From a virus, in the UHGV virus genome UHGV-0205584: DNA of 36,382 bases. One strand, given 5' to 3'. Of this stretch, positions 2,199 to 36,382 are shown piece after piece; within the stretch, counting starts at the first letter, position 1, and every line of letters begins with the position of its first letter. The translations under genes were made by a program, and so were the position numbers. Under the pieces are notes generated by a model. It was not told where the DNA came from, did not search any database, and saw only the letters and a program-made list of their open reading frames with translations.

Positions 2199-2231
2199 AC
2201 TCGATATACACACATGAAAGGTGGTGAGGAT

Positions 2232-21498: not shown

Positions 21499-22029
21499 AT
21501 GCAAGAATTAACGAATTTCATGGGCGAGGCGTGGCGGACGTTGACGGATTCGTTCGTATTAAAGGCCTTGCTTGCCGTCATCGCCGATGTGGCGATATAT
21601 ATGATTGGCTTAAAACATGTGCAGGTGCTAGGAATATTTATATTACTGGTATTCCTAGACCTCATCACGAAATGGGCAGCTATATCGTATCAAATGCTTA
21701 TTGATATGGGGGCAAATGCTGACAATCTAACGGCATTAGACAAATATATAGCCATTCCAGCTGCATGGGGTAAGGGGCTTATATCCTCAAAGCATATGCG
21801 TAAGCCTTTCGTTACAAAAGTTTTAACATATTGCCTAGCCACAGGCGCCGCATGGTGCTTTGACTGCATGGCAGGTCAATACGCTTTTGCCGTCAATATC
21901 GTATGGCTGTATCTCGGCTCGGTTGAATTGTTGAGCATACTCGAGAACATGCGAGACGGTGGAAATACTACCATATCGGGCTTGCTGGACGTGGTTCATG
22001 CAAGAGTAGATATGATTTTGAAAAAATAA
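21499..22029 (+). CDS. Holin (phage holin 4_1-like)
   Basis: Several TM segments; LVFLDLIT, ISSK.MR, ELLSILEN motifs. Confidence 0.85.
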   Translation: MQELTNFMGEAWRTLTDSFVLKALLAVIADVAIYMIGLKHVQVLGIFILLVFLDLITKWAAISYQMLIDMGANADNLTALDKYIAIPAAWGKGLISSKHMRKPFVTKVLTYCLATGAAWCFDCMAGQYAFAVNIVWLYLGSVELLSILENMRDGGNTTISGLLDVVHARVDMILKK

Positions 22030-22044
22030 TATAGTGTTGTTTGT

Positions 22045-22075
22045 GCCACGCTCACGATATATGGGCGTGGCTTTT
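22045..22075 (+). terminator. Terminator-like hairpin between holin and endolysin
   Basis: GCCACGCTCA/TGGGCGTGGC stem followed by TTTT. Confidence 0.65.
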
Positions 22076-22148
22076 GTATTTGAAAACTAGAAATAACGAT
22101 AAAAGCACTATTAAATTATCGTTAAAAGCAGAAACAGAGGTGCATATA

Positions 22149-22538
22149 ATGAAAATTGGTACATATTTCGATGATTACGAATTCGCTTGTAAATGTGGCC
22201 GTCATGGATACGATAGCGACGGACACCCTATTCTCGACCATGTGATTGATAAAAGGCTCGTTGATGTATTGGACGCTATCCGCGAACGTATCGGCCAACC
22301 TATTGAGGTGTTGAGCGGTTATCGTTGCCCTATCCATAATGAGGAAGTAGGGGGCGTGGCAGATTCTCAACATGTAGTAGGTACAGCGGCCGATATTACT
22401 TATGACGGCATTAACGTTGACTACCTCGCCGAAGTGGCCGAGGAATGTGGTGCCGACGGCATTGGGCGATATTATAATCAAGATTTCGTCCATGTTGACG
22501 TGAGGGGCTGGGCCGCTCGTTGGACAGACCAAGACTAA
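22149..22538 (+). CDS. Endolysin, peptidase M15 family
   Basis: EFACKCG, SGYRC..HN..VGG...SQH..G.AADI, FVHVDVRG motifs; ATG 22149 after GAGGTG. Confidence 0.9.
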   Translation: MKIGTYFDDYEFACKCGRHGYDSDGHPILDHVIDKRLVDVLDAIRERIGQPIEVLSGYRCPIHNEEVGGVADSQHVVGTAADITYDGINVDYLAEVAEECGADGIGRYYNQDFVHVDVRGWAARWTDQD

Positions 22539-22553
22539 TATAGGGGGCGTGTG

Positions 22554-23015
22554 ATGTATGAAATTATCAAAAACAAAATTGTACATGCGGTTACTATTCG
22601 GCGCGTTGTTTATGGTGTTATTGGCATTTTGCTCATCTATCTCATTGGCAGCCTCGCCAGCGGATACTTTGAAACAAGAGCCGACTATAAACGTACCTTT
22701 GAGCAGTTGGAACGAACTCAAAGGGCGCTTGATGAAAGCAGAAAGCTCAATCAACAACTCAAAGCAAGCATTGCAGCAAGCCAACAGCTTAACAGCGACG
22801 CAGGGCGACGAATTGAGCAGGCTCAAGACTATCAACGAGAAACAAGGGCAGGAATTGAGCAACTTGAAACAAATCAACGAGAAACAAGCGCAAGAATTGG
22901 CGAAAGCCTCGAACATCTCGACGCAGCAAGAGGAGAAATTGGAAGAGGCCTCGAACTCATTGAGCGAATTGAAAGAGCAAATCAAACGCAACAAACGAAC
23001 AGAGCAACGCCTTAA
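22554..23015 (+). CDS. Spanin-like protein A (N-terminal TM + coiled coil)
   Basis: VVYGVIGILLIYLIGSLA TM followed by heptad-rich region; follows endolysin. Confidence 0.6.
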   Translation: MYEIIKNKIVHAVTIRRVVYGVIGILLIYLIGSLASGYFETRADYKRTFEQLERTQRALDESRKLNQQLKASIAASQQLNSDAGRRIEQAQDYQRETRAGIEQLETNQRETSARIGESLEHLDAARGEIGRGLELIERIERANQTQQTNRATP

Positions 23016-23079
23016 ACGGCAACGCACAATATGGGGCGTAGTGGCTGGCGTGGTTACAGTTGCGGCAGCTGTTAAATAA
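22558..23079 (+). CDS. Spanin-like protein B (signal peptide, coiled coil, C-terminal TM), overlapping A in the +1 frame
   Basis: N-terminal signal ..LFMVLLAFCSSISLA, long heptads, C-terminal IWGVVAGVVTVAAAVK. Confidence 0.7.
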   Translation: MKLSKTKLYMRLLFGALFMVLLAFCSSISLAASPADTLKQEPTINVPLSSWNELKGRLMKAESSINNSKQALQQANSLTATQGDELSRLKTINEKQGQELSNLKQINEKQAQELAKASNISTQQEEKLEEASNSLSELKEQIKRNKRTEQRLKRQRTIWGVVAGVVTVAAAVK

Positions 23080-23184
23080 TGCGGGGGTGGTCCTATTATC
23101 TCCCTACCATACGAGGGCGGACGTATGGGAACTTGTTCCAAAATGGAACGAGTTATAAAGAATTAGTTTATAGCTGAAACGCAT
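23079..23184 (+). ncRNA. Candidate multibranch structured RNA downstream of lysis genes
   Basis: Stems 23107-13/23122-28 and 23130-40/23144-54, closing ATGCG/CGCAT, possible loop pairing GTCCT/AGGGC. Confidence 0.4.
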
Positions 23185-23185
23185 A

Positions 23186-23239
23186 AAGGCCTATCGTGGT
23201 AGTATTTTACAGAACTATCGCGGTAGGCTTTTTTATTTT
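23186..23239 (+). terminator. Late-operon intrinsic terminator
   Basis: ~18-bp G-U-rich stem AAGGCCTATCGTGGTAGT/ACTATCGCGGTAGGCTTT followed by T-tract. Confidence 0.8.
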
Positions 23240-23248
23240 GCCTATTTT

Positions 23249-23320
23249 CAAAAGAATATCAAAAGAATATAGAAAATCGTCAAAAGATTATCAAAAGAAT
23301 GGCAAAAGATTGCAAATAAA
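23249..23320 (+). repeat. Phased ~11-bp repeats CAAAAGA(A/T)T
   Basis: Copies at 23249, 23260, 23281, 23292, 23303; degenerate units at 23271 and 23313. Confidence 0.8.
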
Positions 23321-23322
23321 CC

Positions 23323-23367
23323 CTTGCATATATCTTGAATATATGATATTATATAATCAAAGGTAAG
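23323..23367 (+). promoter_or_regulatory. sigma70 promoter/operator, copy 1
   Basis: TTGCAT-17-TATTAT with extended TG; imperfect palindrome TTGAATATATG-N4-TATATAATCAA. Confidence 0.75.
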
Positions 23368-23411
23368 GCAATGAGACTTACCAGTTGTTAAAAGAAAGGA
23401 AACCACACACC

Positions 23412-23684
23412 ATGAAAATTTTAATGACAGAAGATTTCACAGCAACATTACAAGACAATCAAAAAGATTTCTTGAAACTCATGTTTGACGGCGCACTAAG
23501 CGCAGCACATTCAGCGGCTGCACAATATCGAGTATATAAAGACGAAATCGACAAACTTGATTTTGTAGCCAACATGAAAGCAACGTTCAATTATCAAAAT
23601 CTTGGCGGTATTGAATCGAATCCGCTACTTGATGACTTAACTGAAATGTATTCAAATATCATGAATGCAGCTGCTGACAGATAA
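23412..23684 (+). CDS. Accessory hypothetical protein (90 aa), candidate anti-defence protein
   Basis: ATG 23412 follows the GAAAGGAAACCACACA RBS motif; has its own promoter. Confidence 0.75.
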   Translation: MKILMTEDFTATLQDNQKDFLKLMFDGALSAAHSAAAQYRVYKDEIDKLDFVANMKATFNYQNLGGIESNPLLDDLTEMYSNIMNAAADR

Positions 23685-23692
23685 TAAAATAA

Positions 23693-23711
23693 GGCCCCTA
23701 CTATAGGGGTC
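23693..23711. terminator. Small GC hairpin flanked by A-rich tracts
   Basis: GGCCCCTA-cta-TAGGGGTC; U-tract only when read on the minus strand. Confidence 0.45.
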
Positions 23712-23753
23712 AATAAAATAATACATTATATACATTCAAGAGGAGACAATACT

Positions 23754-23948
23754 ATGAGTAATAAAAACCAATGGGGCGGCGCTCGTAAAGGAGCGGGGGC
23801 GCCTGTTACAGTTGGCGAAGAGGGACGCCGTAAACCTCGGGCCATTCAAATGAACAACGATGAATATGCAGCCCTAAAAACTGCAGCAGAAAAAGCAGGA
23901 ATGAGCATATCGGAATATGCAAGAAAAAAGATTTTTGAAGATTTATAA
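23754..23948 (+). CDS. Small ribbon-helix-helix-like DNA-binding protein
   Basis: WGGARKGAG N-terminal motif, then RAIQMNNDEYAALKTAAEKAGMSISEYARKK. Confidence 0.75.
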   Translation: MSNKNQWGGARKGAGAPVTVGEEGRRKPRAIQMNNDEYAALKTAAEKAGMSISEYARKKIFEDL

Positions 23949-23954
23949 AAAGTA

Positions 23955-23999
23955 CTTGCATTCTATTTGATTATATGTTATCATATAATCAAAGGTAAG
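23955..23999 (+). promoter_or_regulatory. sigma70 promoter/operator, copy 2
   Basis: TTGCAT-17-TATCAT with extended TG; perfect palindrome TTGATTATATG-N4-CATATAATCAA at 23967-23992. Confidence 0.75.
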
Positions 24000-24029
24000 A
24001 CATAATAGTAATGAAAGGGGATTACAATC

Positions 24030-24347
24030 ATGTTAGAAATTATCAACCAATACGCACCAGTAAAAAAACACCTTGCAACAGTCGAAACACCTTACGAGGC
24101 ACTATCTTATATCGTTGATTTATCCGCAAACACTATGGACGTGGACACCATTATAGATGACCCAGAAAGCGGCTTGATTGAAGATATGCCCGAACTCATC
24201 GAGCAAGTAAAGAATGGCCTTGAAGTGTTGATGAACGCCGACGGCGAATATGCTGTATTTAACCCTAAAGAATTAACAGTTGATACAGTCAACACATTAC
24301 TCTATGATGTGCGCATGAGTGATTATAAGGTTATCGAGGTAGAATAA
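24030..24347 (+). CDS. Acidic accessory protein (105 aa), candidate anti-defence protein
   Basis: Very D/E-rich; own promoter; SD GAAAGGGG; 3' end overlaps integrase 3' end. Confidence 0.75.
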   Translation: MLEIINQYAPVKKHLATVETPYEALSYIVDLSANTMDVDTIIDDPESGLIEDMPELIEQVKNGLEVLMNADGEYAVFNPKELTVDTVNTLLYDVRMSDYKVIEVE

Positions 24348-25887
24348 GGCGTATAGGGTAAAGCGAGCCGCCTATATAAAAGTGGTTCGCTTTATTGTAT
24401 GAGTTGCCCACCAATATGCTAAAATGCGAACCGCTTGCAGATTGCTCAGAGAATTCTGGCAATTCACTCTTATAATTAAATACGATTTCAACCCTATCAC
24501 TATGTATGGTTACGTTTTTGATAAAAGTATCGAGAATACGCGAACGGCCTGCTTTTGTGGTAGGGTTTTCGTTTGCCATTCTTTCAAGAAAATACTCTAT
24601 ATGTTCGGCTGTAAATTTGATAGGTGAGATTATACTTTCATGGTTCGCTTTTTGCTCGAGTAGGTTTTGACGTTCTTTTTCTAGGTTTTCAATTTCGGCT
24701 TTTAAACGCTCATTAATAAAACCCTGTTTAATGGCCGTCATACAATTATTTAATTCTGTATCAATAGCTTTAATTTTCCCCTGTAAGCCCTGTATGGCCG
24801 TTTTAGCCTCTTGGGCGGTATGATTATATCCATTCATTACTAAATCGACTATACGAGCGATAATTTGGGGTTGTTTTAGGATTTCAAGCGTTCTATTTAT
24901 GACTAAATCTTCTAACTCATCGCGGCGTATGTTTGGCGCGCTGCATGTGTGATATTTGCGGCGGTTGGTGCATACATAATAATGATGTTTCTCGCCGTTG
25001 CGTGATGTAGCAGTAGACCCCATATAATGCCCGCCACATTGGCCGCATATCAAGCGACCACATAAATTATACATTTCACTTCTCCGTCCTTTATTCTTAA
25101 TTCTAGTAGGTAGTATCCGCTGCACCTCATCGAATACATCACGGGCGATAATAGGCGGGATAGAATCCTCGATTCTAATATCGCCCCATTGATACACGCC
25201 GATATATTTCTCATTGCTCAATATATTGCGTATGACGCTGTACGAAATCTTGCCGCCTCGTTTAGTTGTATATCCTTTACTATGCAAAATATCCGCTATT
25301 TTAGCCAGTGAGTACTGTTTTAAATATAGGCTATATATTAACCTTACCGCCTTGGCCTCGTGAGCATTCACGGCTAAATGGTGGCTTTCTGTAAGGTCAT
25401 AACCTAGAGGAACGGCCGAGCCGTTCATCTTGCCTTTAAGGGCGTTTTCAGTCATGCCGCGCTTGACCTTTTGCGATAGCTCTACAGAATAATATTCAGC
25501 CATACCCTCGAGCATGCTTTCTAAAATGATACCCGCAGGCTCGTTGGTGATGTGTTCCTTGGCACTTAACACTCTAACCCCATTACGGCGTAATATGCCC
25601 TTATATTTGGCGCTATCCTCACGGCTACGGCTGAATCTATCTAATTGATACACTATTACATAATTAAATGTTTGATTCGCGCTATCACGAATCATCTGTA
25701 AGAATTCTGGGCGGTTATCCGTTCGCGCCGATAAAGCCCTATCTGTATATATTTTAGTAATAAGAATTCCCTCACGTTGAGCGTATTCGGTGCATTCCCG
25801 TATTTGCCCCTCTATGGATTCGTCCCGTTGCTTATCGGACGAGTAGCGTGCATATATCACGCCTGTTTGTAAATCGGTATTATTCAT
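24331..25887 (-). CDS. int: Large serine recombinase (integrase), 518 aa
   Basis: YARYSS, LDRFSR catalytic domain, recombinase domain, CGQCG...YYVC...C zinc ribbon, coiled coil; start MNNTDLQ after GAAAGGAAATCACACA. Confidence 0.95.
   Translation of the reverse strand: MNNTDLQTGVIYARYSSDKQRDESIEGQIRECTEYAQREGILITKIYTDRALSARTDNRPEFLQMIRDSANQTFNYVIVYQLDRFSRSREDSAKYKGILRRNGVRVLSAKEHITNEPAGIILESMLEGMAEYYSVELSQKVKRGMTENALKGKMNGSAVPLGYDLTESHHLAVNAHEAKAVRLIYSLYLKQYSLAKIADILHSKGYTTKRGGKISYSVIRNILSNEKYIGVYQWGDIRIEDSIPPIIARDVFDEVQRILPTRIKNKGRRSEMYNLCGRLICGQCGGHYMGSTATSRNGEKHHYYVCTNRRKYHTCSAPNIRRDELEDLVINRTLEILKQPQIIARIVDLVMNGYNHTAQEAKTAIQGLQGKIKAIDTELNNCMTAIKQGFINERLKAEIENLEKERQNLLEQKANHESIISPIKFTAEHIEYFLERMANENPTTKAGRSRILDTFIKNVTIHSDRVEIVFNYKSELPEFSEQSASGSHFSILVGNSYNKANHFYIGGSLYPIRLILPR
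24380..24436. other. Candidate attP inside the 3' end of int
   Basis: Inverted repeat AAGTGGTTCGC...GCGAACCGCTT (GGTT..AACC span 49 bp) centred on GCCCACCA, a tRNA 3'-end-like sequence. Confidence 0.65.
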
Positions 25888-25918
25888 TGTGTGATTTCCT
25901 TTCAAATTGTATAAGTAT

Positions 25919-25944
25919 AGCCCCCTTGATAGGGGGCTTTTTTT
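25919..25944 (+). terminator. Plus-strand intrinsic terminator upstream of int (antisense orientation)
   Basis: AGCCCCCT-tgat-AGGGGGCT followed by a run of T. Confidence 0.75.
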
Positions 25945-26422
25945 ATTTCTTATGCTTACTATTATATTTTGCTTGCGCCTCGGCCATTTTGCCACTTTGA
26001 ACGGCGAAATTAAAAGCATATATTGCTGTTTTGTACTCGTCGGAACCCTCGACGATTGGAACTATAGGCGTAGGCGTGATTGTGCCACCTATCACATAAT
26101 CAGCGTTGCGCGCGAAGTTTGTCTCTCTATCTACTTGATAGAGTACGGCGTAAGGCTTGCCAGAGCCGTGCGGGTCAAGCACATAATGAAAATGGTTTAA
26201 CTTCCATGTAATATATGGCTTGCTTGTGTCATCTTGGCTGGTATATAAGAGTATTTCCACACTTCCGCCGTCATAATTCTTTACGTCTAAATCAGCCCGC
26301 ACGCTAACGTTTACGCCGTTGGCCGTAGTGTAAGCTGGTACAAATGGCGCGTTTGGATTATGTGCCATTACTGGAATTGATAAAAATGAGCATAATGCAG
26401 CCGCAATAATCAACTTTTTCAT
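25943..26422 (-). CDS. Secreted/periplasmic protein in lysogeny module (superinfection exclusion candidate)
   Basis: Signal peptide MKKLIIAAALCSFLSIPVMA; lies between repressor and integrase. Confidence 0.7.
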   Translation of the reverse strand: MKKLIIAAALCSFLSIPVMAHNPNAPFVPAYTTANGVNVSVRADLDVKNYDGGSVEILLYTSQDDTSKPYITWKLNHFHYVLDPHGSGKPYAVLYQVDRETNFARNADYVIGGTITPTPIVPIVEGSDEYKTAIYAFNFAVQSGKMAEAQAKYNSKHKK

Positions 26423-26445
26423 ACTAACCCCCTAATAATATATAT

Positions 26446-26973
26446 CTATTTCCCTTTCAAAAACGCCTCTATAAGTGCCTTAATGGTAGCCCTCTCATCA
26501 TCGGTGATGATGTGCTTGCCATAAGATAATACATTATCACGCTCAAGAATAACCTTTAAATTAATCCCGTCGGAACTCTCTATATTTAGCAATGTAGAGG
26601 GTTCCTTTTTTAATTGCGGTATTTCAAGCTGCTGGATAACGTCTTTTTTCAAAGCACACGCTACATACAAATCGTCAATAGCATCGTCATCATACATGGA
26701 TAAGTCAATATCAGCGCCGCATTGATGAATGAAGTCTATTTTTTGTTGACGCATGGCGTCGAAACCCTCAACCTCACCAGTTAAGTAATACACAGATACA
26801 CCAAAATAGTCGGCTATTGCCTTTAATTTATCCAATTTAGGAGATGAGCGGCCTTTCTTCCAATCTGTAAGTGATGCGGTGGATATTCCTGTATCCTTTC
26901 CAAGCTTGTAAGCGCTGATGTTTTCTCGGTTTAGCAAGCTTTCTATTCGTTTCCAAACAATTTTTTTATTCAT
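26446..26973 (-). CDS. CI-like repressor (XRE HTH)
   Basis: ISAYKLGKDTGISTASLTDWKKGRSSPKLDKLKAIADYFGVSVYYL; divergent from cro-like gene. Confidence 0.9.
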   Translation of the reverse strand: MNKKIVWKRIESLLNRENISAYKLGKDTGISTASLTDWKKGRSSPKLDKLKAIADYFGVSVYYLTGEVEGFDAMRQQKIDFIHQCGADIDLSMYDDDAIDDLYVACALKKDVIQQLEIPQLKKEPSTLLNIESSDGINLKVILERDNVLSYGKHIITDDERATIKALIEAFLKGK

Positions 26974-27010
26974 TGTTGATTTCCTATTTAAATTTTTTAC
27001 AAACGCTTAA

Positions 27011-27106
27011 TTGGACTAACTCGTAAATGTGAGATATTATGTAATCACAAGGTAGCTAACAAATACGAGATAAACTAACAAATACATAAATTCGTATTTA
27101 TTAGCT
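27011..27106. promoter_or_regulatory. Genetic switch: operators (CTCGT-AWWT-GTKAG-like) and rightward promoter
   Basis: Sites at 27020-33, 27056-69 (reverse), 27075-88 (partial), 27091-104; TGGACT-17-TATTAT at 27012-27040. Confidence 0.6.
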
Positions 27107-27156
27107 AACATATATTAATTAATTCCAATATATCAGAAAAGAGGTGATTTTACAAC

Positions 27157-27339
27157 ATGTATGAAAAAATCGACAAGCTATTAAAAGATAACAACATTAC
27201 ACCTTATAGAATGTGCAAGGTGCTTGGGATTAAGACGTCATCTATGACGGCATGGAAACAGGGCAAATATAAGCCGAGCGTCGACAACTTGAAAAAGATT
27301 GCTGATTTCTTTGGGACTACTATTGATTATTTTTTATAG
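27157..27339 (+). CDS. Cro-like repressor (XRE HTH)
   Basis: 60-aa HTH, WKQGKYKPSVDNLKKIADFFG; SD GAGGTG. Confidence 0.9.
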   Translation: MYEKIDKLLKDNNITPYRMCKVLGIKTSSMTAWKQGKYKPSVDNLKKIADFFGTTIDYFL

Positions 27340-27358
27340 GTAGAAAGGAAACCACACA

Positions 27359-28105
27359 ATGAACGAATTACAAATATTCAATAATGCAATGTTTGGTAAT
27401 GTGCGAGTTTTATTACAAGGCGATGAACCTTGGTTTGTTGCAAAGGATATCGCTGATACTCTCGGGTACCAAAACGGTAGTCGAGATGTAAACCGACATA
27501 CTGATGAAGAAGATAGAACAAAGACAATGGTGTTTGATGGTAATCAAAATAAAGAAACGATTTTGATTAATGAAAGCGGACTTTATTCATTGGTACTATC
27601 TAGCAAATTACCAAACGCGAAACAATTTAGACGTTGGGTAACAGGTGAAGTGCTTCCAAGCTTACGCAAATATGGAACGTATAGCATGGATATCCCTAGA
27701 ACGTTGCCAGATGCCTTAAAAGCATATGCTAGTGAAATCGAGGCACATAACCAAACAAAAGCCCTGTTAGAGGAACAAAAGCCAAAAGTACTATTTGCTG
27801 ATGCGGTAAGTGCAAGCGACACCGATATATTAATCGGTGATTTAGCGAAACTCTTAAATCAAAACGGCCATAACATCGGACAAAATAGACTGTTTGAGCG
27901 GCTAAGAAAAGAGGGCTATTTAATTTCTAGGAAAGGAAACTCTTACAATACGCCAACGCAAAAGGCTATGGAACTAGGACTTTTCAGAATTAAAGAAACC
28001 GCTATTACTCACGCGGACGGGCGAACAACAATAAACAAAACGCCAAAAGTAACAGGTAAAGGCCAATTATATTTTATTAATCGCTATGAGGGCGTGCAGT
28101 TATGA
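27359..28105 (+). CDS. Antirepressor (BRO-N + ANT/KilAC)
   Basis: EPWFVAKD, INESGLYSL, F.RWVT.EVLPS; KPKVLFADAV, TPKVTGKGQ.YFI. Confidence 0.92.
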   Translation: MNELQIFNNAMFGNVRVLLQGDEPWFVAKDIADTLGYQNGSRDVNRHTDEEDRTKTMVFDGNQNKETILINESGLYSLVLSSKLPNAKQFRRWVTGEVLPSLRKYGTYSMDIPRTLPDALKAYASEIEAHNQTKALLEEQKPKVLFADAVSASDTDILIGDLAKLLNQNGHNIGQNRLFERLRKEGYLISRKGNSYNTPTQKAMELGLFRIKETAITHADGRTTINKTPKVTGKGQLYFINRYEGVQL

Positions 28106-28263
28106 CGCTGTTCATTGATGAAATTCACAAATTTTATAGCAATCCTCAAAATCTAGCGGACTTTGAGGCATGGAAAGAAAGGAAATTACACAATGATGAC
28201 ACAACAACAAAAACCACGGCGCAGACGCGGACGTGTGAAGAAAAACAGAATGAAACTTATTGA
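28102..28263 (+). CDS. Small hypothetical protein (53 aa)
   Basis: ATGA overlap with antirepressor stop; MTLFIDEIHKFYSNPQNLADFEAWKERK... Confidence 0.55.
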   Translation: MTLFIDEIHKFYSNPQNLADFEAWKERKLHNDDTTTKTTAQTRTCEEKQNETY

Positions 28264-28327
28264 TATTATAGGCGTTATTGGCTGGGTATCGTTGATATAT
28301 GCGGCCGTGGTGCTTTGGTTAGTTTAG
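28193..28327 (+). CDS. Small membrane protein (44 aa)
   Basis: ATG directly after GAAAGGAAATTACACA; basic N-terminus plus C-terminal TM IIGVIGWVSLIYAAVVLWLV. Confidence 0.55.
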   Translation: MMTQQQKPRRRRGRVKKNRMKLIDIIGVIGWVSLIYAAVVLWLV

Positions 28328-28337
28328 AGGTGAAACG

Positions 28338-28436
28338 ATGAATTTTATTATTGAATGTTTAATGATTGCAGGTATGGCACTCTCGGCGGTATTCGTTTTA
28401 CATTGCCTTGTTATTATCGCCGTGTTATTGGCATAA
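28338..28436 (+). CDS. Small hydrophobic peptide (32 aa)
   Basis: SD GAGGTG; MNFIIECLMIAGMALSAVFVLHCLVIIAVLLA. Confidence 0.55.
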   Translation: MNFIIECLMIAGMALSAVFVLHCLVIIAVLLA

Positions 28437-28504
28437 AAAAAGAACAGCCAACAAAAAGCTGACTGTTCAACGTTCCAATCGTTAATAACGAAAGGAAACC
28501 ACAC
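28435..28504 (-). ncRNA. Predicted ~70-nt trans-acting antisense sRNA
   Basis: Promoter TTGACA-17-TACAAT upstream; 5' end GUGUGGUUUCCUUUC complementary to a repeated RBS motif; terminator GAACAGUCAGC/GUUGGCUGUUC + U7. Confidence 0.75.
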
Positions 28505-28510
28505 AACAAC

Positions 28511-28539
28511 ATTGTAATGTATCTATTCTTAATTGTCAA
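28511..28539 (-). promoter_or_regulatory. Near-consensus sigma70 promoter for the sRNA
   Basis: Plus-strand TGTCAA 28534-39 and ATTGTA 28511-16 read as TTGACA-N17-TACAAT on the minus strand. Confidence 0.85.
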
Positions 28540-28560
28540 AAGAAAGGAAACCACACAAAC

Positions 28561-29490
28561 ATGTACAAGAAAATTTTTGACAGCAAAAACGCCACTCGTG
28601 AGGAATGGTTAAAGGTTCGCAAGTTAGGCCTCGGCGGTTCAGATATGGCCGCAGTATTGGGGTTAAGCCCTTGGCGCAGCCCTATTGACGTATGGCTTGA
28701 TAAAACGAGCGACACAGTAGAGGAAAAAGAAAGCGAGCCGATGTATTGGGGCAACGTACTCGAGGAAGTAGTAGCGCAGGAATTCGCCAAACGTAGCGGG
28801 TATAAGGTGCGCAATAACAACTTTACTCTACAAAGTGAGGAATATCCTTATTTATTGGCTAACATTGACCGCGAAATCGTCGGCCTAGACGCTGGCCTCG
28901 AATGTAAGACGGCCAACGCATTCAAGGCTAATGAATGGGACGGCGACAATGTGCCAGACGCTTATTATATCCAATGCCAGCATTACATGGCGGTAACGGG
29001 TAAATCTAGCTGGTGGATAGCGTGCCTCGTAGGTGGAAATACATTCTACTACAAAGAAATCAAGCGTAATGAGGAAGTCATCGCGGCCATTATCGACACT
29101 GGGGCGGCATTCTGGGAATTAGTTAAAAATAAGACCATGCCAGCGCCAGACGATACGAAACAATGCGAAAACGCTCTCAAGAAACTCTATCAAAATAGCA
29201 ATGGCCAAAGCGTGGAACTACCTGCTAACTACGGGAACATGATTATTGACTATTTAGAAATCAAAAATCAACTATCCGAATTAGAGACTAAAAAGCGCGG
29301 CATTGAAAACGTGATGAAAGATTTCTTGAAAGATAACGAAAGAGCCACATACGGCGAGCATTTTGTTTCATGGAAATCCACGAAAGCACGAGAAACGTTT
29401 GACGCAAAAGCGTTCAAGGCCGATTACCCCGAACTGCATAAAAAGTATATTAAAGTCGGCGAACCAAGCCGCAGAATGGACATCAAATAA
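28561..29490 (+). CDS. YqaJ-like (lambda Exo family) exonuclease
   Basis: EEWLKVRKLGLGGSD, LLANIDR, GLECKT, YYIQCQHYMAV. Confidence 0.93.
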   Translation: MYKKIFDSKNATREEWLKVRKLGLGGSDMAAVLGLSPWRSPIDVWLDKTSDTVEEKESEPMYWGNVLEEVVAQEFAKRSGYKVRNNNFTLQSEEYPYLLANIDREIVGLDAGLECKTANAFKANEWDGDNVPDAYYIQCQHYMAVTGKSSWWIACLVGGNTFYYKEIKRNEEVIAAIIDTGAAFWELVKNKTMPAPDDTKQCENALKKLYQNSNGQSVELPANYGNMIIDYLEIKNQLSELETKKRGIENVMKDFLKDNERATYGEHFVSWKSTKARETFDAKAFKADYPELHKKYIKVGEPSRRMDIK

Positions 29491-29648
29491 TGAAAACATG
29501 TGATTTGAGAAAACTGCTCGAGGCTGCTCCTTATGATTTTGGTGTACACATCGAAACGCCTGTAAACATCACCCAATATACAGCAGAGGCAAAAGCGGTA
29601 TATATCGACTTTGAAAATAAATTGTTTGTAATAGGAGATAAAAAATAA
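29490..29648 (+). CDS. Small hypothetical protein (52 aa)
   Basis: TAATG coupling at both ends; fills the gap exactly. Confidence 0.6.
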   Translation: MKTCDLRKLLEAAPYDFGVHIETPVNITQYTAEAKAVYIDFENKLFVIGDKK

Positions 29649-29893
29649 TGGAAAACACAGAAAACAAAGAAATTGAAACAGTAGAAACAAAGCCAAAAAG
29701 AAAACATTTACTTGCAGAAATAGCAAAATTAAATGAACTTAACAAAAAGCTAGAAGATGACCTCAGATATAGCAATATGCGAGTTGAGAATCGTGAAAGA
29801 AATATCACCGAACTAAAAGCAGAAATCACCGCATTGCGTGCATATGTGGCTGGCGTAAAAGGCGACGCATTCCCAGAAAGTGAGGATAAATAA
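29648..29893 (+). CDS. Coiled-coil hypothetical protein
   Basis: 81 aa, SD AGGAG, heptads. Confidence 0.7.
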   Translation: MENTENKEIETVETKPKRKHLLAEIAKLNELNKKLEDDLRYSNMRVENRERNITELKAEITALRAYVAGVKGDAFPESEDK

Positions 29894-29895
29894 TA

Positions 29896-30771
29896 ATGGC
29901 AACTACAACAGGAATTGAATTAAAGAAAAATAACATCACGGCGCAAAAAGAGGCCAAGACAGTAAAAGGAATGCTTGAAACGCCAGCATTCAAAAAGAAA
30001 TTCGAGGAAATGCTTGGCAAAAAGGCGGCGGGATTTATCTCAAGTATTATCGCCGTAACAAATAGCAGCAATTATCTTATGAAAGCTGACCCTGCGACAG
30101 TTATCGGCGCAGCAGCACAGGCGGCCATGTTGGACTTGCCGATTAATCAATCTCTTGGGTTCGCTTATATCGTTCCATATAAAGGCGCTGCACAATTCCA
30201 ACTCGGCTATAAGGGCTATATCCAATTAGCCCAACGTAGCGGCCAATATATTGATATTGGGGCAAAAACAGTATACGAGGGCGAGCTTGAATATGAAAAC
30301 AGATTACTCGATAAATTCAAATTCGGCGAACGTACGAGCGATAAAGTCATCGGCTACCTAGCATATTTCAGACTTACAAACGGCTTTGAAAAAATGCTGT
30401 ATATGACTATTGATGAGGCACAGGCACATGCCAAGAAATATAGTCAAAACTATAAGGGCGGTACCGACAAATGGGGCCTTGCAGATTTCAATGTAATGGC
30501 CGAGAAAACAGTACTTAAACGTCTACTTTCAAAATATGGCCCGTTGAGCATTGAAAGCGTTCAAATGAGCCAAGCCCTAGCCAATGACGGCGGCGTGATT
30601 AGCATGAATAATGACGGCGATTTTGATGTAAATTTCAGCGGTGAAACAATCGACGCAGAAACAGAAACAGAGGAACAGACGGAACAACCTGCAGAAAATC
30701 ACGATACCTATATCGTAGGTGGCGAGGTTATCGACGCAGAAACTGGCGAGGTAGTACATGATGACAAATAA
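29896..30771 (+). CDS. recT: RecT-family single-strand annealing protein
   Basis: LGFAYIVPYK..AQFQLGYKGYIQLAQRSGQY, MAEKTVLKRLL.KYGPLSIE. Confidence 0.93.
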   Translation: MATTTGIELKKNNITAQKEAKTVKGMLETPAFKKKFEEMLGKKAAGFISSIIAVTNSSNYLMKADPATVIGAAAQAAMLDLPINQSLGFAYIVPYKGAAQFQLGYKGYIQLAQRSGQYIDIGAKTVYEGELEYENRLLDKFKFGERTSDKVIGYLAYFRLTNGFEKMLYMTIDEAQAHAKKYSQNYKGGTDKWGLADFNVMAEKTVLKRLLSKYGPLSIESVQMSQALANDGGVISMNNDGDFDVNFSGETIDAETETEEQTEQPAENHDTYIVGGEVIDAETGEVVHDDK

Positions 30772-31021
30772 CGATAAAATGCTCGCTCAATTCGGTGCTG
30801 ACTGGGTGAAAGTAAGAGATTTTATCGAATCATTAAAGGCGTTTTATATTTCTTACACGCCTACGTTTATGGTGCGAATAGAAAAGGAGACAGGCGTGCC
30901 AGCCAATACAGTTAAAAGCATTTTAGACTACGGCCTACAGATTGGGCTATATGGCAAGACGAGCGATAGAGATTATATCACGTTATCGCCTGTTAGAAAG
31001 GAGCGACATGGCAGAACCTAA
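30758..31021 (+). CDS. Hypothetical protein (possible winged-helix)
   Basis: 87 aa, SD GAGGT, overlaps neighbours. Confidence 0.65.
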   Translation: MMTNNDKMLAQFGADWVKVRDFIESLKAFYISYTPTFMVRIEKETGVPANTVKSILDYGLQIGLYGKTSDRDYITLSPVRKERHGRT

Positions 31022-31892
31022 ACGATATTACTGGCTACGGCTGCATAAAGATTTCTTTCAAAAGAAAGAAATTAAGCGATTACGGCGGGTGGCTGGTGGT
31101 GATACTTACACCATCATCTACTTAAAAATGTTATTAAGGTCAATCATTGACGGCGGGAAATTATACTTTGACGGCTACGAGGATACATTTGTATCAGAGT
31201 TAGCACTCGACATTGACGAAGATGAACAAAATGTTCAAATAACTGTAAATTATCTATTAAAAAATGGTTTATTAATTGAATGCGAAAATGACGAGTATTA
31301 TCTACCCGAGGCAACCAACAATACAGGCTCAGAAACCGCTGCAGCCAGTAGAATGCGGAAACTTCGAGATAAGTCAAAAGGTTCAGAGTGTAACAATGTT
31401 ACGCCATTATGTAACAATGTTACACCTATGTTACAAGAATGTTCGCAATCGTTACAAACCTGTTACGGAGAGAAAAAGATAGAGAAAGAGTTACATAAAG
31501 AGATACATAAAGAGATAGAACACAGAGATAGAGATATAAGTATATCTACAACTAGAGAGGATAAAGAAATCGAAAATTCTCAATCTCTTCCTCCTATGTC
31601 AAACACAGATATATATGATTTGTGGATAAGCTTCTTTGGGATTATCTCCTCTTTTGTCAAAGGCAAACTTGATGACCTTATCGATGAATATGGTCTTATC
31701 GATGTATCAAACGCCTTGCGTATTGCAAAAGAGCGAGGCAAATCAAGAATACGATACGTTGAGGGAATTTTGAAAAATCAGAGGTTAGAAAATGGAGCAA
31801 ATGGACGTAACGGCGGCACTCGAGCAACTACGAGAAAAGATGAGCAAGTCGACTGGGAGCAAGAGGCGGCCAAGACCTACGGACAAGATTGA
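31008..31892 (+). CDS. Replication initiator (replisome organizer N-terminal domain, DnaD-like C-terminus)
   Basis: KRYYWLRL.KDFF....IK.LR...GG.TY.IIYLKMLL; RYVEGILKN; ATG 31008 after AAGGAG. Confidence 0.88.
   Translation: MAEPKRYYWLRLHKDFFQKKEIKRLRRVAGGDTYTIIYLKMLLRSIIDGGKLYFDGYEDTFVSELALDIDEDEQNVQITVNYLLKNGLLIECENDEYYLPEATNNTGSETAAASRMRKLRDKSKGSECNNVTPLCNNVTPMLQECSQSLQTCYGEKKIEKELHKEIHKEIEHRDRDISISTTREDKEIENSQSLPPMSNTDIYDLWISFFGIISSFVKGKLDDLIDEYGLIDVSNALRIAKERGKSRIRYVEGILKNQRLENGANGRNGGTRATTRKDEQVDWEQEAAKTYGQD
31389..31545 (+). repeat. Putative replication origin: iterons within rep
   Basis: TGTAACAATGTTAC x2 (31389, 31410); GTTAC at 31398, 31419, 31430, 31451, 31462; then purine-rich AGAGATA-type tract. 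Confidence 0.75.
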
Positions 31893-32517
31893 GTTTTATA
31901 AGCCAATCTATGACAAGCCGATTGTAATCCGCTCAAATATCAACGAAACATATGCAGCTGCTGGTATTCCTAAACGCTACTACGGCATGAGTTTTGACTG
32001 GCTAAAAGAGCATGGCACATTTCAGAGCGCCAACAAAGAGGCGTATGCCGTTGTTAAAGATTACAGGGATAATCTGGCGGAGTATATGAATACAGGAAAG
32101 GGCCTCATATTAAGGGGACCCGCTGGCACAGGCAAGACGTCGCTCGCTGTATGTCTACTTAAAGAGGTGATGAAGTTAAACACAGGGGCAATGATGATTT
32201 CAATGCCTAACCTGCTTGATACTATGCTCACCTTATCAAAGGGCGATAGAGTGGCGTACCTAGCCTATGAGCAAAAGCTAAAACACATTCCAATGTTGCT
32301 GCTTGATGATTTCGGGGCTGAATATTCCAAATCGGACTGGGTAGCGGCTAAAGTCGAAAGTATCATCATTGAACGATACAACAGCATGAGGCCGATTATC
32401 CTTACAACTAATTACAGCGACCAATGGACTAAGGACAATTACAGCGGCCGCATATATGACCGCTTACGAGGCGAGTATAAAGTTGCGGTATTCATGGGGC
32501 AGTCTCATAGAATCTAA
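31792..32517 (+). CDS. DnaC/IstB-like helicase loader ATPase
   Basis: GPAGTGKT Walker A, LLLLDDFGAE, ILTTN, RIYDRL. Confidence 0.9.
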   Translation: MEQMDVTAALEQLREKMSKSTGSKRRPRPTDKIEFYKPIYDKPIVIRSNINETYAAAGIPKRYYGMSFDWLKEHGTFQSANKEAYAVVKDYRDNLAEYMNTGKGLILRGPAGTGKTSLAVCLLKEVMKLNTGAMMISMPNLLDTMLTLSKGDRVAYLAYEQKLKHIPMLLLDDFGAEYSKSDWVAAKVESIIIERYNSMRPIILTTNYSDQWTKDNYSGRIYDRLRGEYKVAVFMGQSHRI

Positions 32518-32519
32518 AA

Positions 32520-32611
32520 TTGATTTATTCGCCCTGTATGCTCGTTTAAATTTTTCGACGATAAAATACTCGTTAGAAATATTTCACGGGGCAAGACGGG
32601 GCGGAAATCAA
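32520..32611. other. Long imperfect intergenic hairpin
   Basis: Nested arms TTGATTT/AAATCAA, CGCCCTG/CGGGGCG, TGCTCGT/ACGGGGCA, AAATTTTTC/GAAATATTT, GACGA/TCGTT. Confidence 0.55.
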
Positions 32612-32653
32612 CGCCAAATTAAAAAATAAAACAAAAGATATAGAGGTGAAATC

Positions 32654-33232
32654 TTGGAAATTGTAATTCACGGCCAACCAAGGACGAAAAAGAACAGCGG
32701 CCGCATTGTGATAAGGGACAATATCAGAAAACTCCTACCCTCGGACGCATTTATTCGATATGAAAAGGCGGCATTGTTGCAGCTGGTACATGTTGGCGCT
32801 GTTCAAGGACCAATCTCGGTATGTTGCCGTTATTATTTACAAGACAGACGGAGCTGGCCCGATTTGGTTGGCCTGTTACAAGCGACTTCCGACATATTGC
32901 AAGACGCTGGCGTGATTGAGGACGATAAATATATCGTGAATTATGACGGCTCGGAAATCGTAGGGCTTGACAAGGAAAATCCTAGAGTAGTGATTACAAT
33001 TCATCAAATTGCCGAATCAAGTATCTTATGCGATGAATATGCCAAGGCGAAAGCTAGAGAGTGCGACACCACTCAACGGCCAAAAAGCCGACAAGTTGCC
33101 AAGAGAGGGGCTAAGGCTAAACCAAAAGCCCCTACCTCAATCTCATATATCGAATATCGAAAGTTAATGATGAAAGGAAACCACACACATGAACGAAACA
33201 GAGTACAGGCTACGCCTAAAAGGCGAAATTGA
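32654..33232 (+). CDS. RusA-like Holliday junction resolvase with basic C-terminal extension
   Basis: TTG start after GAGGTG; GQPRTKKNS, PDL..L.....DIL..AGVIEDD, DKENPRV.ITI. Confidence 0.8.
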   Translation: MEIVIHGQPRTKKNSGRIVIRDNIRKLLPSDAFIRYEKAALLQLVHVGAVQGPISVCCRYYLQDRRSWPDLVGLLQATSDILQDAGVIEDDKYIVNYDGSEIVGLDKENPRVVITIHQIAESSILCDEYAKAKARECDTTQRPKSRQVAKRGAKAKPKAPTSISYIEYRKLMMKGNHTHERNRVQATPKRRN

Positions 33233-33407
33233 TATAGAGGCCGTGATAGCGGCTACATCGGAAAGCGACGCAATCGATAAAGCGGCCGCCGTGCAAGAGG
33301 CAATCAATAATCAAATTACGATTGATTGCGGCAATATCGCTGATGTGAAAGAAATCATCACGAACGAAATTACATTGAGATTCGTATGTGCAGAAATTGC
33401 GGATTAA
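33189..33407 (+). CDS. Hypothetical protein (acidic, 72 aa)
   Basis: ATG after exact GAAAGGAAACCACACA motif. Confidence 0.7.
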   Translation: MNETEYRLRLKGEIDIEAVIAATSESDAIDKAAAVQEAINNQITIDCGNIADVKEIITNEITLRFVCAEIAD

Positions 33408-33417
33408 GGGGGATAAC

Positions 33418-33633
33418 ATGGGATATATTAAGGCAGAATATGGCAAGAATAATATGTTCGAGTTAGACATTGAAATTAAAGACTGCAATTCTATCGAATG
33501 TTTATCTTTTGCTAGTGGTGTAGCTGAGGAAATTCTCAACAGTATAGCAAAAGGGAAATCGAAAACGTTTATAGGCTACAAAAGAGCGCTTATCGGTGCT
33601 ATAGAAATGGCGGAGTTTAACAATCATGAATAA
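33418..33633 (+). CDS. Hypothetical protein
   Basis: ATG 33418 after AAGGGGG. Confidence 0.65.
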   Translation: MGYIKAEYGKNNMFELDIEIKDCNSIECLSFASGVAEEILNSIAKGKSKTFIGYKRALIGAIEMAEFNNHE

Positions 33634-33916
33634 ACTATCAGAGCGATTTGAACAAAAAATTCCGACATTCTTGGCTCATCTTGACGTGTGGAATGACACG
33701 CCAATGAGCGACTGCAAATATACAACACACGATTATAAGCGGGAAATGCACAAACAGAATTACACAAAAAAATGTGTAATTTGCGGTAAAACATTCACTT
33801 GCACGAATTACAACAAACGCCAATTATGTTGCAGTCGAGCGTGTGGCAATAGATTAGGCGGTATTAGGCGAAGAGAAACAATTGATAAACGAAAAGCAGC
33901 GATGAAAGGGGCCTAA
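33626..33916 (+). CDS. Cys-rich putative zinc-finger protein
   Basis: CVICGKTF...CCSRAC motif. Confidence 0.7.
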   Translation: MNKLSERFEQKIPTFLAHLDVWNDTPMSDCKYTTHDYKREMHKQNYTKKCVICGKTFTCTNYNKRQLCCSRACGNRLGGIRRRETIDKRKAAMKGA

Positions 33917-33918
33917 TT

Positions 33919-34326
33919 ATGTTAGTGGAAGATAAGAGTAAATATTGCTGGGTTACGCCCAACGGAATCGGCGGCCCAGAGGATAGCGTAGAGCAGGCAG
34001 TCAAAAGCTATCTATGTTTACATAGACCAGATGAGAACGCAGATATTGTTATAGGAATCGGACACCCTAGTTTTTACATTCCCGACGTTGACGGGGACAG
34101 CGTGATTGAAAGCGTTATAGACCAATTACCAGATGAAGTCTATGACACGGACGAGGATTATTTACATGACGTCAAACGTGAGCATGTAAACGAATTAAGT
34201 GAAGAACTAACAAAGGTATTCCGTGCATGGGTTAACCGCCACGGATACCACCATAGAGGCATGTTTGTAGAAAACAGTGAGACACATCATATTAAGCGAT
34301 ATGAGTATAAGGAGATAACGAAATGA
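33919..34326 (+). CDS. Hypothetical protein
   Basis: 135 aa, SD AAGGGG. Confidence 0.7.
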   Translation: MLVEDKSKYCWVTPNGIGGPEDSVEQAVKSYLCLHRPDENADIVIGIGHPSFYIPDVDGDSVIESVIDQLPDEVYDTDEDYLHDVKREHVNELSEELTKVFRAWVNRHGYHHRGMFVENSETHHIKRYEYKEITK

Positions 34327-35744
34327 ACACAAAATATTTAGCAGCAATCATGACAATTACAGCATTAACAGCACCAGCATATGCAGCTGGTACAAATAAT
34401 ACAATAGGCGGCACCGATAACATCGCCACGGCTAATAGTGCGGCGGTGTTTGGCTATCAAAACCAAACAAACGCAAATAATACGCTAACATTCGGGGAGA
34501 ATAACATCACGAACGGAACGAATGCGTTCGCAGGCGGTAATAATTCCAAAGCCGAGGGAAGAAATACATTCGCATTCGGTAGTCATGCCGAGGCGCTAAC
34601 CGAATACACTTATGCGATTGGTTCGCAGGCTAAAACGTCGGCCTATGACGCGATTGCGGTAGGAAACGGCGCTTATGCAGGCGGCGAGAGTACTATTGTT
34701 ATCGGAAGAACAAACACAGTCAACGGGAAAAATTCCGTTGTAATCGGTGCCAATAATATGCAAGTAGACGGCGGGCAGTCAACTGTACTCGGATATAATA
34801 ACCGCGTTGATAATTCACAGGAACAGACAATTCTAGGCGCTAACAGTCAAACGGCTGGACAGGGCGCGACAGTTATCGGAACACATGCAAAAGCAACAGC
34901 TATTGACGCCCTAGCGATTGGCAATAATACAATCGCCGACAAGTCGAACAGTGTGGCGATTGGTACTAACAGCGTTACAGACGAGGCAGTCGCAACTCGT
35001 CAAGCGATTGTAAATGGCGTAACGCATGTTTTTGCTGGCGATTCACCTCAATCCGTTGTATCTGTAGGCAGTAAGGGCCATGCTGGATATGGTGGCGTGC
35101 AATATTACACTCGACAAATCACAAACGTCGCAGCGGGGCGAGTAGACCCTAACAGCACCGACGCCATTAATGGCAGTCAGCTGTATGCTGCTTATGACGA
35201 AATCGGCCACAACGGCACAGCAATTCAAAATTTAGCCAATACTACCAGCCAACAATTTGCAGCGGTAAATAACACTATCACCGCACAAAATACGCGTATC
35301 GGTGATAATACGGCGGCGATTTCGCAACATGAAAGCCAATTACAAAATCATGAGGCTAGAATTACAACGCTAGAACATAACACAGCGGGACAGATTTCTC
35401 ATGTATTGAGCGAAGTCGCAAAAACAGGCGCGGCTAATGCAGCACTTTCCGCTTTGCACTATCTCGGCTATAACGCAGATGACAAATTAACATTTGCAGC
35501 TGGTTATGGACATTATAAAAATGCTAATGCGGCCGCTATTGGTGCATTCTACGCGCCGAATGAACATGTATTATTCAACATCGGCGCAACGCTTGGCGGC
35601 ACTGCAATGATTAACGCTGGCGTATCGTTCCGATTAGGTAAAGGCAGCGAGTACGAATTGAACCATAAAGGCAAAATCGCGCAACTTGAGGCACTAGTAA
35701 ATGAATTAATCAATGAAGTGGCAGAATTGAAAGAGGCGAAATAA
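34323..35744 (+). CDS. YadA-like trimeric autotransporter adhesin
   Basis: Signal peptide, AxG head repeats, RQITNVAAG...TDAINGSQL neck, stalk, beta-anchor (AAGYGHYKNANA.AIG.FY.PNE...GVSFRLG), C-terminal coiled coil. Confidence 0.92.
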   Translation: MNTKYLAAIMTITALTAPAYAAGTNNTIGGTDNIATANSAAVFGYQNQTNANNTLTFGENNITNGTNAFAGGNNSKAEGRNTFAFGSHAEALTEYTYAIGSQAKTSAYDAIAVGNGAYAGGESTIVIGRTNTVNGKNSVVIGANNMQVDGGQSTVLGYNNRVDNSQEQTILGANSQTAGQGATVIGTHAKATAIDALAIGNNTIADKSNSVAIGTNSVTDEAVATRQAIVNGVTHVFAGDSPQSVVSVGSKGHAGYGGVQYYTRQITNVAAGRVDPNSTDAINGSQLYAAYDEIGHNGTAIQNLANTTSQQFAAVNNTITAQNTRIGDNTAAISQHESQLQNHEARITTLEHNTAGQISHVLSEVAKTGAANAALSALHYLGYNADDKLTFAAGYGHYKNANAAAIGAFYAPNEHVLFNIGATLGGTAMINAGVSFRLGKGSEYELNHKGKIAQLEALVNELINEVAELKEAK

Positions 35745-35950
35745 TGAAAGGGTTATTACTAATAATTGTGGTTGTATTGGGATTAATTGGAAAGGTTGCG
35801 AGCGTTGCGCTCGCAATCGCCCTCATACTTTGGTTGATTGGATTATTTGGAATTACTGGCAGTGATGTGTTAAGAGTATTGTTTACAGTAATTGGACTTT
35901 ACACTACTTCAATAATGTTGTTTGTAATCGCCGAATCAAAAGAGGGCTAG
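35744..35950 (+). CDS. Small membrane protein
   Basis: 68 aa, almost entirely hydrophobic; TAATG coupling. Confidence 0.7.
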   Translation: MKGLLLIIVVVLGLIGKVASVALAIALILWLIGLFGITGSDVLRVLFTVIGLYTTSIMLFVIAESKEG

Positions 35951-35953
35951 CAT

Positions 35954-36148
35954 ATGACATTGCTATACAAAAAGCTTAAAGATTACATTTTAACAAGCTA
36001 CGATTTAAGTAGCTTGGTGAGTGCCAGCCATAAATGTACAGCGTTTTATGAGGCAGGGGAAATCACAAAGCTAGAATATCGAAAGCTAATGAAATGTATC
36101 GATAGGATAGTTATAAAAGGCTGTAAATGCGAGAGAATTGGATTGTAA
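35954..36148 (+). CDS. Hypothetical protein
   Basis: 64 aa, SD GAGGG. Confidence 0.6.
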   Translation: MTLLYKKLKDYILTSYDLSSLVSASHKCTAFYEAGEITKLEYRKLMKCIDRIVIKGCKCERIGL

Positions 36149-36160
36149 AAGAGGTGTAGA

Positions 36161-36373
36161 ATGTACAATCTCAATGAATTGATAAAAATAGGAATTGATG
36201 AAATTGTAAGTTATACGGATTATAGAGGGTTCGCAATAGTTGAATTCAAATGCATGGATAAAATAAGCCCAGATAAATTACAAAAGACATTGCAGTATGT
36301 CAGAGAAATTACAAAAGGGGAACCATGCAACGAGATATATGTGAAAGCCAATATTTTAATTGATAGAAATTGA
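36161..36373 (+). CDS. Hypothetical protein
   Basis: 70 aa, SD GAGGTG. Confidence 0.65.
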   Translation: MYNLNELIKIGIDEIVSYTDYRGFAIVEFKCMDKISPDKLQKTLQYVREITKGEPCNEIYVKANILIDRN

Positions 36374-36382
36374 GGTGATAGT

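Follow-up and report, generated by a model that had tools for sequence, protein, structure and literature searches.

A predicted small antisense RNA and its shared ribosome-site tag in a temperate phage genome

The antisense RNA sar of phage P22, which is 68/69 nt long and is encoded in the early control region, blocks the ribosome-binding site of ant (PMC12197685, PMC7968456), and the c4 RNAs of P1 and P7 repress by antisense pairing at ribosome-binding regions and are connected with heteroimmunity (PMC12197685); a further account places c4 in Proteobacteria and phages (PMC2864571). In cluster K mycobacteriophages, the start-associated sequence (SAS) is an asymmetric, host-rare repeat with a Shine-Dalgarno (SD) core near the starts of non-structural genes and with occasional copies off starts, and the 2011 report left open whether its reader is an RNA or a protein (PMC3203893). 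The described phage antisense regulators that we found (sar, c4 and OOP) each act on one locus. The c4 RNA is cut from the transcript of its own target operon. In the literature covered by our search, outside which most subscription journals fell, no phage RNA was found that regulates several genes of its own phage via a shared ribosome-site tag.

The window (the whole stretch of DNA that was analysed, 36,382 nt) is the genome of a temperate phage, with virion genes, a holin, a large serine integrase downstream of cI and on the same strand, CI-like and Cro-like regulators, a Bro-N/KilAC antirepressor, YqaJ and RecT, and further early genes for a replisome organiser, a DnaC-like and a RusA-like protein. 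Its host is taken to be Veillonella because the best genome matches of its YqaJ are Veillonella prophages (96% and 78% identity). Among GenBank phages only fragments of the antirepressor were matched, and not one of these spanned 80% of the query. Two ORFs, of 73 aa and 386 aa, make up the region of the terminase large subunit (2214-3671), where a stop or frameshift may have arisen, and a gene for a YadA-type trimeric autotransporter adhesin lies within the early operon (34323-35744). Integrase length differs between contigs, at either 504-506 aa or 518-520 aa, and many contigs stop just past codon 494; these length variants and contig ends therefore suggest an attachment site inside the 3' end of the integrase gene (window 24331-24420; L227-L262), such that integration alters the integrase C terminus.

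A predicted RNA unit and the copies of its repeat

An earlier note, made from the letters of this DNA, had proposed a promoter TTGACA-N17-TACAAT on the minus strand, an 11-bp terminator stem followed by U7, and a small RNA between them. The promoter coordinates hold, the terminator was borne out and the RNA sequence was correct as given (Table 1); stem-loop 1 is absent from that note. In a scan of 22000-36382, the promoter was the sole 11-of-12 site among 42 promoter-like sites, and since such sites were overall at chance level (42 vs a shuffle mean of 39.3), its weight comes from position and conservation. The 71-nt minus strand folds at -25.2 kcal/mol (z -6.8), a value that 0/200 shuffles equalled. 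Across 29 distinct alleles, 98.7% of the cells of the terminator stem were paired, with two-sided changes in 7 of the 11 pairs, and slid controls reached only 37-55%. The terminator was assigned to the minus strand because 50 cells were G-U on that strand vs 4 on the plus strand (these being A-C on the minus), and the minus strand folded better than the plus in 29/29 alleles. A search of the whole window against Rfam, with hits allowed up to E = 5, gave no family for the RNA; its only hit was a Phe_leader match below threshold at another place.

In predicted folds of the 29 distinct RNAs, nt 1-5 had a mean unpaired probability of 0.97 and the whole 5' toehold (nt 1-7) one of 0.87, and in 29/29 alleles the anti-SD CC was paired within stem-loop 1 while nt 1-5 were unpaired. 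Masking by stem-loop 1 recurred in 0.8-9% of 500 shuffles of the middle segment, as determined for seven representative alleles.

The 16-mer repeat has seven matches in the window at up to 3 mismatches (five exact, one with 1 mismatch and one with 2), compared with a mean of 0.22 and a maximum of 2 in 100 shuffles. As the earlier note had stated, the copy from which the RNA would be read (the template copy) is the only one that lacks an ATG within 0-3 nt; the other six copies, hereafter tags, precede an ATG, which follows after 2, 0, 0, 0, 3 and 1 nt. On the early mRNA the template copy belongs to a perfect 70-nt complement of the RNA, with a cis duplex of -120.6 kcal/mol. When nt 1-20 of the RNA were paired with 54 gene starts of the window, seven starts paired at -22 to -32 kcal/mol, none of them belonging to a virion gene, and the next best reached -17.6. 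The seventh, before the 105-aa accessory gene, was not in the earlier note; its duplex of -22.5 leaves a net of only -9.5 kcal/mol after the folding cost. Atlas searches gave no name for the 72-aa or the 90-aa target protein (DpnD/PcfM is a weak lead), and Pfam had no match for the 32-aa or the 44-aa peptide. Upstream of both accessory genes lie duplicated, promoter-like AT-rich blocks (23335-23390 and 23955-24000), as if each gene were a self-expressed cassette.

Table 1. Positions in the window of the predicted RNA unit, the repeat copies and neighbouring genes (tag, repeat copy before a start codon).
Feature	Position	Strand	Remarks
Predicted sigma-70-type promoter	28511..28539	minus	-35 TTGACA 28539-28534, -10 TACAAT 28516-28511, N17 spacer
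Predicted 70-nt small RNA	28435..28504	minus	+1 inferred at 28504, the end of the repeat
Free 5' toehold, nt 1-7	28498..28504	minus	complement of the ACCACAC spacer (SD to AUG) in targets
Stem-loop 1	28473..28497	minus	predicted fold; covers anti-SD bases
Intrinsic terminator	28435..28468	minus	11-bp stem 28468-28442, U7 28441-28435
Template copy of repeat	28490..28505	plus	sole copy without start codon
Tag, large serine integrase (ATG 25887, gene to 24331)	25888..25903	minus	one G-U; duplex -24.4
Tag, YqaJ/RecE-like exonuclease (28561-29490)	28542..28557	plus	adjoins -35 box of the RNA promoter
Tag, 72-aa post-RusA-like gene (33189-33407)	33164..33187	plus	24-nt extended pairing; duplex -37.2
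Tag, Bro-N/KilAC antirepressor (27359-28105)	27343..27358	plus	optional in relatives
Tag, 44-aa basic, hydrophobic peptide gene (28193-28327)	28177..28192	plus	repeat match; two G-U
Tag, 90-aa accessory gene (23412-23684)	23394..23409	plus	repeat match
Possible seventh target, 105-aa accessory gene (24030-24347)	24013..24026	plus	four differences, all G-U compatible
32-aa hydrophobic peptide gene	28338..28436	plus	untagged; stop codon meets terminator U-run, tail to tail
CI-like repressor	26973-26446	minus	no tag
Cro-like gene	27157-27339	plus	no tag

Conservation and joint variation of seed and tags

A YqaJ query retrieved 79 viral and 21 genome loci, and the conservation set (n=58) consisted of the window, 43 relatives with YqaJ at 77% identity or more and with upstream DNA, and 14 loci found by a variant motif. 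The unit was present in 43/43 of the close relatives, which had been retrieved by protein alone, and the A-run, the hairpin, the seed, the -10 box (5 or 6 of 6 positions) and a second repeat copy before the recombination gene were found at 58/58 loci. Three seed types were distinguished: group 1, that of the window; group 2, in loci with YqaJ 77-81% identical; and group 3 (the 14 loci), in which unrelated recombination genes, DUF1351 and ERF, lie downstream of the unit. One promoter subtype of group 2 has a TATAAT -10 box but matches the -35 box at only 2 of 6 positions. In all three groups the predicted +1, 7 nt past the -10 box, coincides with the end of the repeat, and the predicted RNAs of the relatives are 60-73 nt long. 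Stem-loop 1 of group 3 is compensated, with the seed U changed to G and its partner to C. No reading frame on the RNA is conserved across the alleles, and a leaderless mini-gene with GTG at +1, for which the window has a 61-codon frame at 28504, was rejected as scarcely conceivable: the frame has 11-18 codons in the other group-1 alleles, 1 in group 2 and 6 in group 3.

To score the tags, leaders were chosen by protein signature in 60 loci and pairing was calculated against the seed of the same locus. The covariation between seed and ribosome-site motif that the earlier note had suggested looking for in related prophages was found across the three seed types: the tag fits its own seed before the integrase in 39/42 relatives (38/41 when distinct integrases from loci whose unit is known are counted), at the first recombination gene in 59/59 loci, and before the post-RusA gene in 46/48. 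The last figure includes the 72-aa gene in 38/38 loci of groups 1 and 2, and in group 3 a different, 100-aa post-RusA gene is tagged in 8/10 while the 72-aa homologue is untagged in 7. The antirepressor, which had been put forward as a central target, turned out to be an optional one, with a tag in only 17/46 relatives (17/52 rows before four false ORF matches and two truncated genes were removed). Tags before the 44-aa peptide gene were confined to group 1 (10/14, compared with 0/37 in groups 2 and 3), and one homologue of the 90-aa accessory gene (in L298) bears a group-2 tag. In four loci (L113, L117, L120 and L123) the antirepressor is cut to a 17-codon stub with its tag retained.

Between groups 1 and 2, seed and tags change jointly at the integrase, recombinase, post-RusA and antirepressor genes. 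The template was identical in 17/17 group-1 and 26/29 group-2 loci, the remaining three differing at its outer edge, and the group-2 target loci have 3-6 alleles while the template core is invariant. Thirty-four distinct differences were recorded, of which 15 are compatible with G-U pairing, 7 insert or delete bases and 12 disrupt a pair. Of these 12, nine go back to two template changes, two to an antirepressor exchanged for one of group 1 and one to the decay of a peptide site. Among target-side substitutions, 15/18 are G-U compatible (p ~0.004 at a background transition rate of 51/102 from four-fold sites), a weak test given that all transitions at A or C are G-U compatible and that it loses power if background transitions are as common as in a second count (18/21). 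Stronger evidence of RNA pairing is provided by the post-RusA site, 4.6 kb from the RNA unit, where pairing runs 11-12 nt past the SD in 15/15 group-1 and 9/9 group-3 sites, and the two groups share neither the letters of the extension nor the gene; in group 2 there is no such extension. Group-1 tags are poor partners for the group-2 seed (-11.5 to -17.2 vs -20.7 to -25.6), and discrimination in the reverse direction is partial, the group-1 seed scoring -19.2 on the commonest group-2 tag vs -19.7 for that tag's own seed. The group-3 seed has one fixed mismatch to every group-3 target. In a quick tree of 60 integrases the tag type follows the clades, with five changes, so the many loci represent few independent events.

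A held-out metagenome set of 32 further loci, which may overlap the viral set, was collected via the group-2 seed and -10 box. An A-run of at least 6 was present in 30/32 (the remaining two having the hairpin and five A), the anti-SD was masked in 30/30 of those folded, and tags were found before the recombinase in 31/31, the integrase in 23/23 and the antirepressor in 11/29; both new tag alleles are G-U compatible. At least five Cro types co-occur with the group-1 unit and tag, which suggests that the RNA layer is independent of the repressor type. At least two antirepressor N-terminal types and several Cro types have been exchanged around a constant RNA unit (antirepressor genes of L113-L150 and L213-L226).

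Retention of the tag with loss of the unit, the outcome that the earlier note had named as speaking against its proposal, was seen in two relatives, set beside the 43 close relatives that all keep the unit. In L262 the promoter is lost and the two repeats are joined, with the integrase tag retained; in L357 the left half of the terminator is gone and the tags are retained. These two contig-level mutants suggest that the RNA unit is dispensable for propagation. Mosaic mismatches stand beside intact units at the antirepressor of L163 and the integrases of L216 and L226, and the integrase of L115 lacks a tag although its unit is intact.

A covariance model found the unit in 3/120 Veillonellaceae genomes; at distant YqaJ and integrase loci it had no hit. 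A seed-independent detector recovered 6/6 positive controls and flagged 3/79 distant loci, 0 of them with a repeated tag; an exact 11-mer test missed 2/4 positives and was dropped. In the sister integrase clade, a single clade, unit and tag were both absent at 17/17 loci. Tags followed by ATG numbered four in one of five host genomes (all in prophage), one in another and zero in three. The complete V. parvula genome had 0 tag matches at 0-1 mismatch and 12 at 2 mismatches, vs 28 for the reversed control, and a long ORF followed the tag-like site at 0 of the 25 host loci examined among the matches listed; the idea of a generic Veillonella ribosome site was accordingly rejected. Hfq (PF17209) was detected in 0/3 Veillonella genomes, with 5/14 control genomes positive.

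Two further kinds of locus were noted. Upstream of yqaJ in distant Veillonella phages (L151-L156, L164, L167, L179, L194-L196, L200, L202, L206) there is a shorter minus-strand unit of ~55 nt with an extended -10 box and a terminator and no repeated tag, possibly an ancestral form. In the integrase leader (window 25889-25946, plus strand; L238-L262, L213-L226), an opposite-strand TATAAT-like box lies behind the tag in all three groups, followed directly by a terminator hairpin in group 1 and by a longer stretch with a conserved ACCGCC motif in group 2, the latter possibly a second small RNA. A second unit at this place in the window (25890-25944, plus strand) was rejected, and it is read as a terminator only, because its -10 box lacks conservation and group 2 has no such hairpin.

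Proposed mechanism and alternative readings

From these sequence comparisons, we consider it very likely that the RNA is made and likely that it acts in trans on the tags, and it is, with marginally less assurance, probable that the unit makes a 70-nt non-coding RNA that jointly blocks translation of several tagged phage genes. The earlier proposal of a minus-strand RNA acting on multiple ribosome-binding sites thus gained from the conservation, the covariation, the strand-specific G-U pairs and the absence of the tag from host gene starts, for what is still a predicted RNA. In the mechanism that we envisage, the free toehold would first pair with the spacer between SD and AUG, after which stem-loop 1 would be opened and the SD covered, and initiation would be blocked at several cistrons. 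Because the anti-SD is masked, the RNA would spare the ordinary ribosome sites of host and phage, and with 15-24 bp of pairing it would have no need of Hfq. The integrase, the first recombination gene and one post-RusA gene would form the core of the regulon, which antirepressor, peptide and accessory genes would join in some phages.

We infer a role for the RNA in lysogeny, and here the proposal is least certain. The RNA may be constitutive in the lysogen, mopping up leaky early transcripts and the integrase cistron that ends the cI operon, and on induction the rightward early transcript, which crosses the promoter, might titrate it and release all targets in a threshold switch. A lysogeny lock with release by titration would fit because the integrase lies downstream of cI and the early transcript carries the 70-nt complement; a timer during infection fits both features as well. 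That the RNA is mainly a lysogeny lock has, in our estimate, a little under an even chance. More tentative again is the fullest version, a private tag regulon read by one toehold-gated anti-SD RNA that would be independent of CI and Cro and neutralised by the lytic transcript, with the seed types as a second, RNA-coded immunity and the RNA as the first SAS reader. As a timer, the RNA would accumulate after entry and shut off the integrase, recombination and other early genes or, alternatively, block incoming related phages, the mechanism being shared with the lock and the role different. Such a role, which we hold to be doubtful, would agree with the inconstancy of the antirepressor as a target, the untagged cI and cro and the occurrence of one unit across different Cro types, but the dispensability for propagation suggested by L262 and L357 argues against it, as does the position of the integrase downstream of cI on one strand, which would fit a need in the lysogen.

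Two other readings dispense with an RNA that acts on the tags in trans. In one, the action of the RNA is confined to cis, as with OOP or a type I antitoxin, its targets being the early transcript and two adjoining hydrophobic peptide genes, and the other repeat copies are strong ribosome sites (SD plus an ACA-type enhancer) spread by duplication or RecT-type gene conversion. The perfect cis complement favours it, as do a hydrophobic gene of 30-32 aa that, at most of the loci shown, meets the terminator tail to tail, the enhancement of translation by ACA motifs described in one source (PMC3879156), and L262, in which recombination between copies has occurred. We nevertheless judge it unlikely: it does not predict an invariant template with wobble-only drift of the targets, the coincidence of repeat end and +1, a covarying 11-12-nt extension 4.6 kb away or a hairpin exactly masking the anti-SD, the adjoining peptide gene is absent in at least four relatives (L119, L150, L193, L256), and the terminators listed for the window include none on the plus strand there for a toxin mRNA. 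Less likely by a clear step is that the repeat is the site of a phage protein, whether an asymmetric operator or stoperator in DNA or the RNA site of a translational repressor, with two copies flanking and controlling the minus-strand promoter. Direct repeats do lie 52 bp apart on either side of that promoter, all copies are oriented with transcription, sites might change along with their protein, and SAS function was itself left open between RNA and protein (PMC3203893). Yet the spacing of the repeats varies (46, 49 and 51 by the script's measure), one base more or less is tolerated inside the A-run, the CI/Cro pair does not track the tag since at least five Cro types share that of group 1, and there would be no explanation for a perfect antisense copy that has a promoter and a terminator to itself.

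Relation to described antisense regulators and start-associated repeats

Like sar, the RNA predicted here from the DNA would be ~70 nt long and be transcribed from the opposite strand between a promoter and a terminator of its own; unlike sar, which lies in the arc-ant interval and has one target, it is situated 1.1 kb from ant (start 27359) and would have 6-7 targets on both strands over 10 kb, with ant as an optional one. As in P1/P7 heteroimmunity (PMC12197685), its sequence variants could define specificity groups. In c4 (RF01695), a family to which no Rfam match was obtained, the pairing sequences likely lie in loops and the target is the ant mRNA, whereas the predicted folds here offer a 5' toehold and a masked stem to several operons.

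Lambda OOP (~77 nt; PMC12197685) likewise lies within an early operon and runs against it from a promoter to a terminator of its own. The perfect cis complement to the early transcript is another likeness, the 70-nt plus-strand overlap lying between the peptide gene and yqaJ and a through-going transcript being presumed. OOP, however, acts in cis on cII mRNA via RNase III and overlaps the cII 3' end; here the tags for action in trans are repeated, and the neighbour is the 32-aa hydrophobic ORF, overlapped at its stop codon only. As with a type I antitoxin, a small hydrophobic peptide gene is convergent with the RNA, although some relatives lack it as noted above.

The tags resemble SAS in their asymmetry, in an SD core placed shortly upstream of the ATG of non-structural genes and in their rarity in the host. 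By inspection, the 13-bp consensus of cluster K and its 17-bp inverted-repeat extension are absent here, sequence and host are unrelated, and, unlike SAS, the tag has a candidate RNA partner encoded in the same genome that covaries with it. The seed of GcvB is G/U-rich. Like GcvB and other multi-target sRNAs (PMC3879156), the RNA would set a seed against C/A-rich leaders of many mRNAs; unlike GcvB, its targets would be the phage's own genes, with near-perfect pairing over 15-24 bp and with Hfq absent from the three Veillonella genomes searched.

The case names a partner for start-repeat tags, and three natural seed types and two natural mutants make it testable; a masked anti-SD with a 5' toehold would be a natural design for Hfq-free, orthogonal translational control. 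The unit is real and conserved, and its product is probably a phage RNA that acts in trans on several targets, a variation on antisense control. By membership the predicted RNA is outside c4, sar and OOP, yet it would work like sar and c4 with several targets, and, if this is true, no reader of a phage start-associated sequence would have been identified before it.
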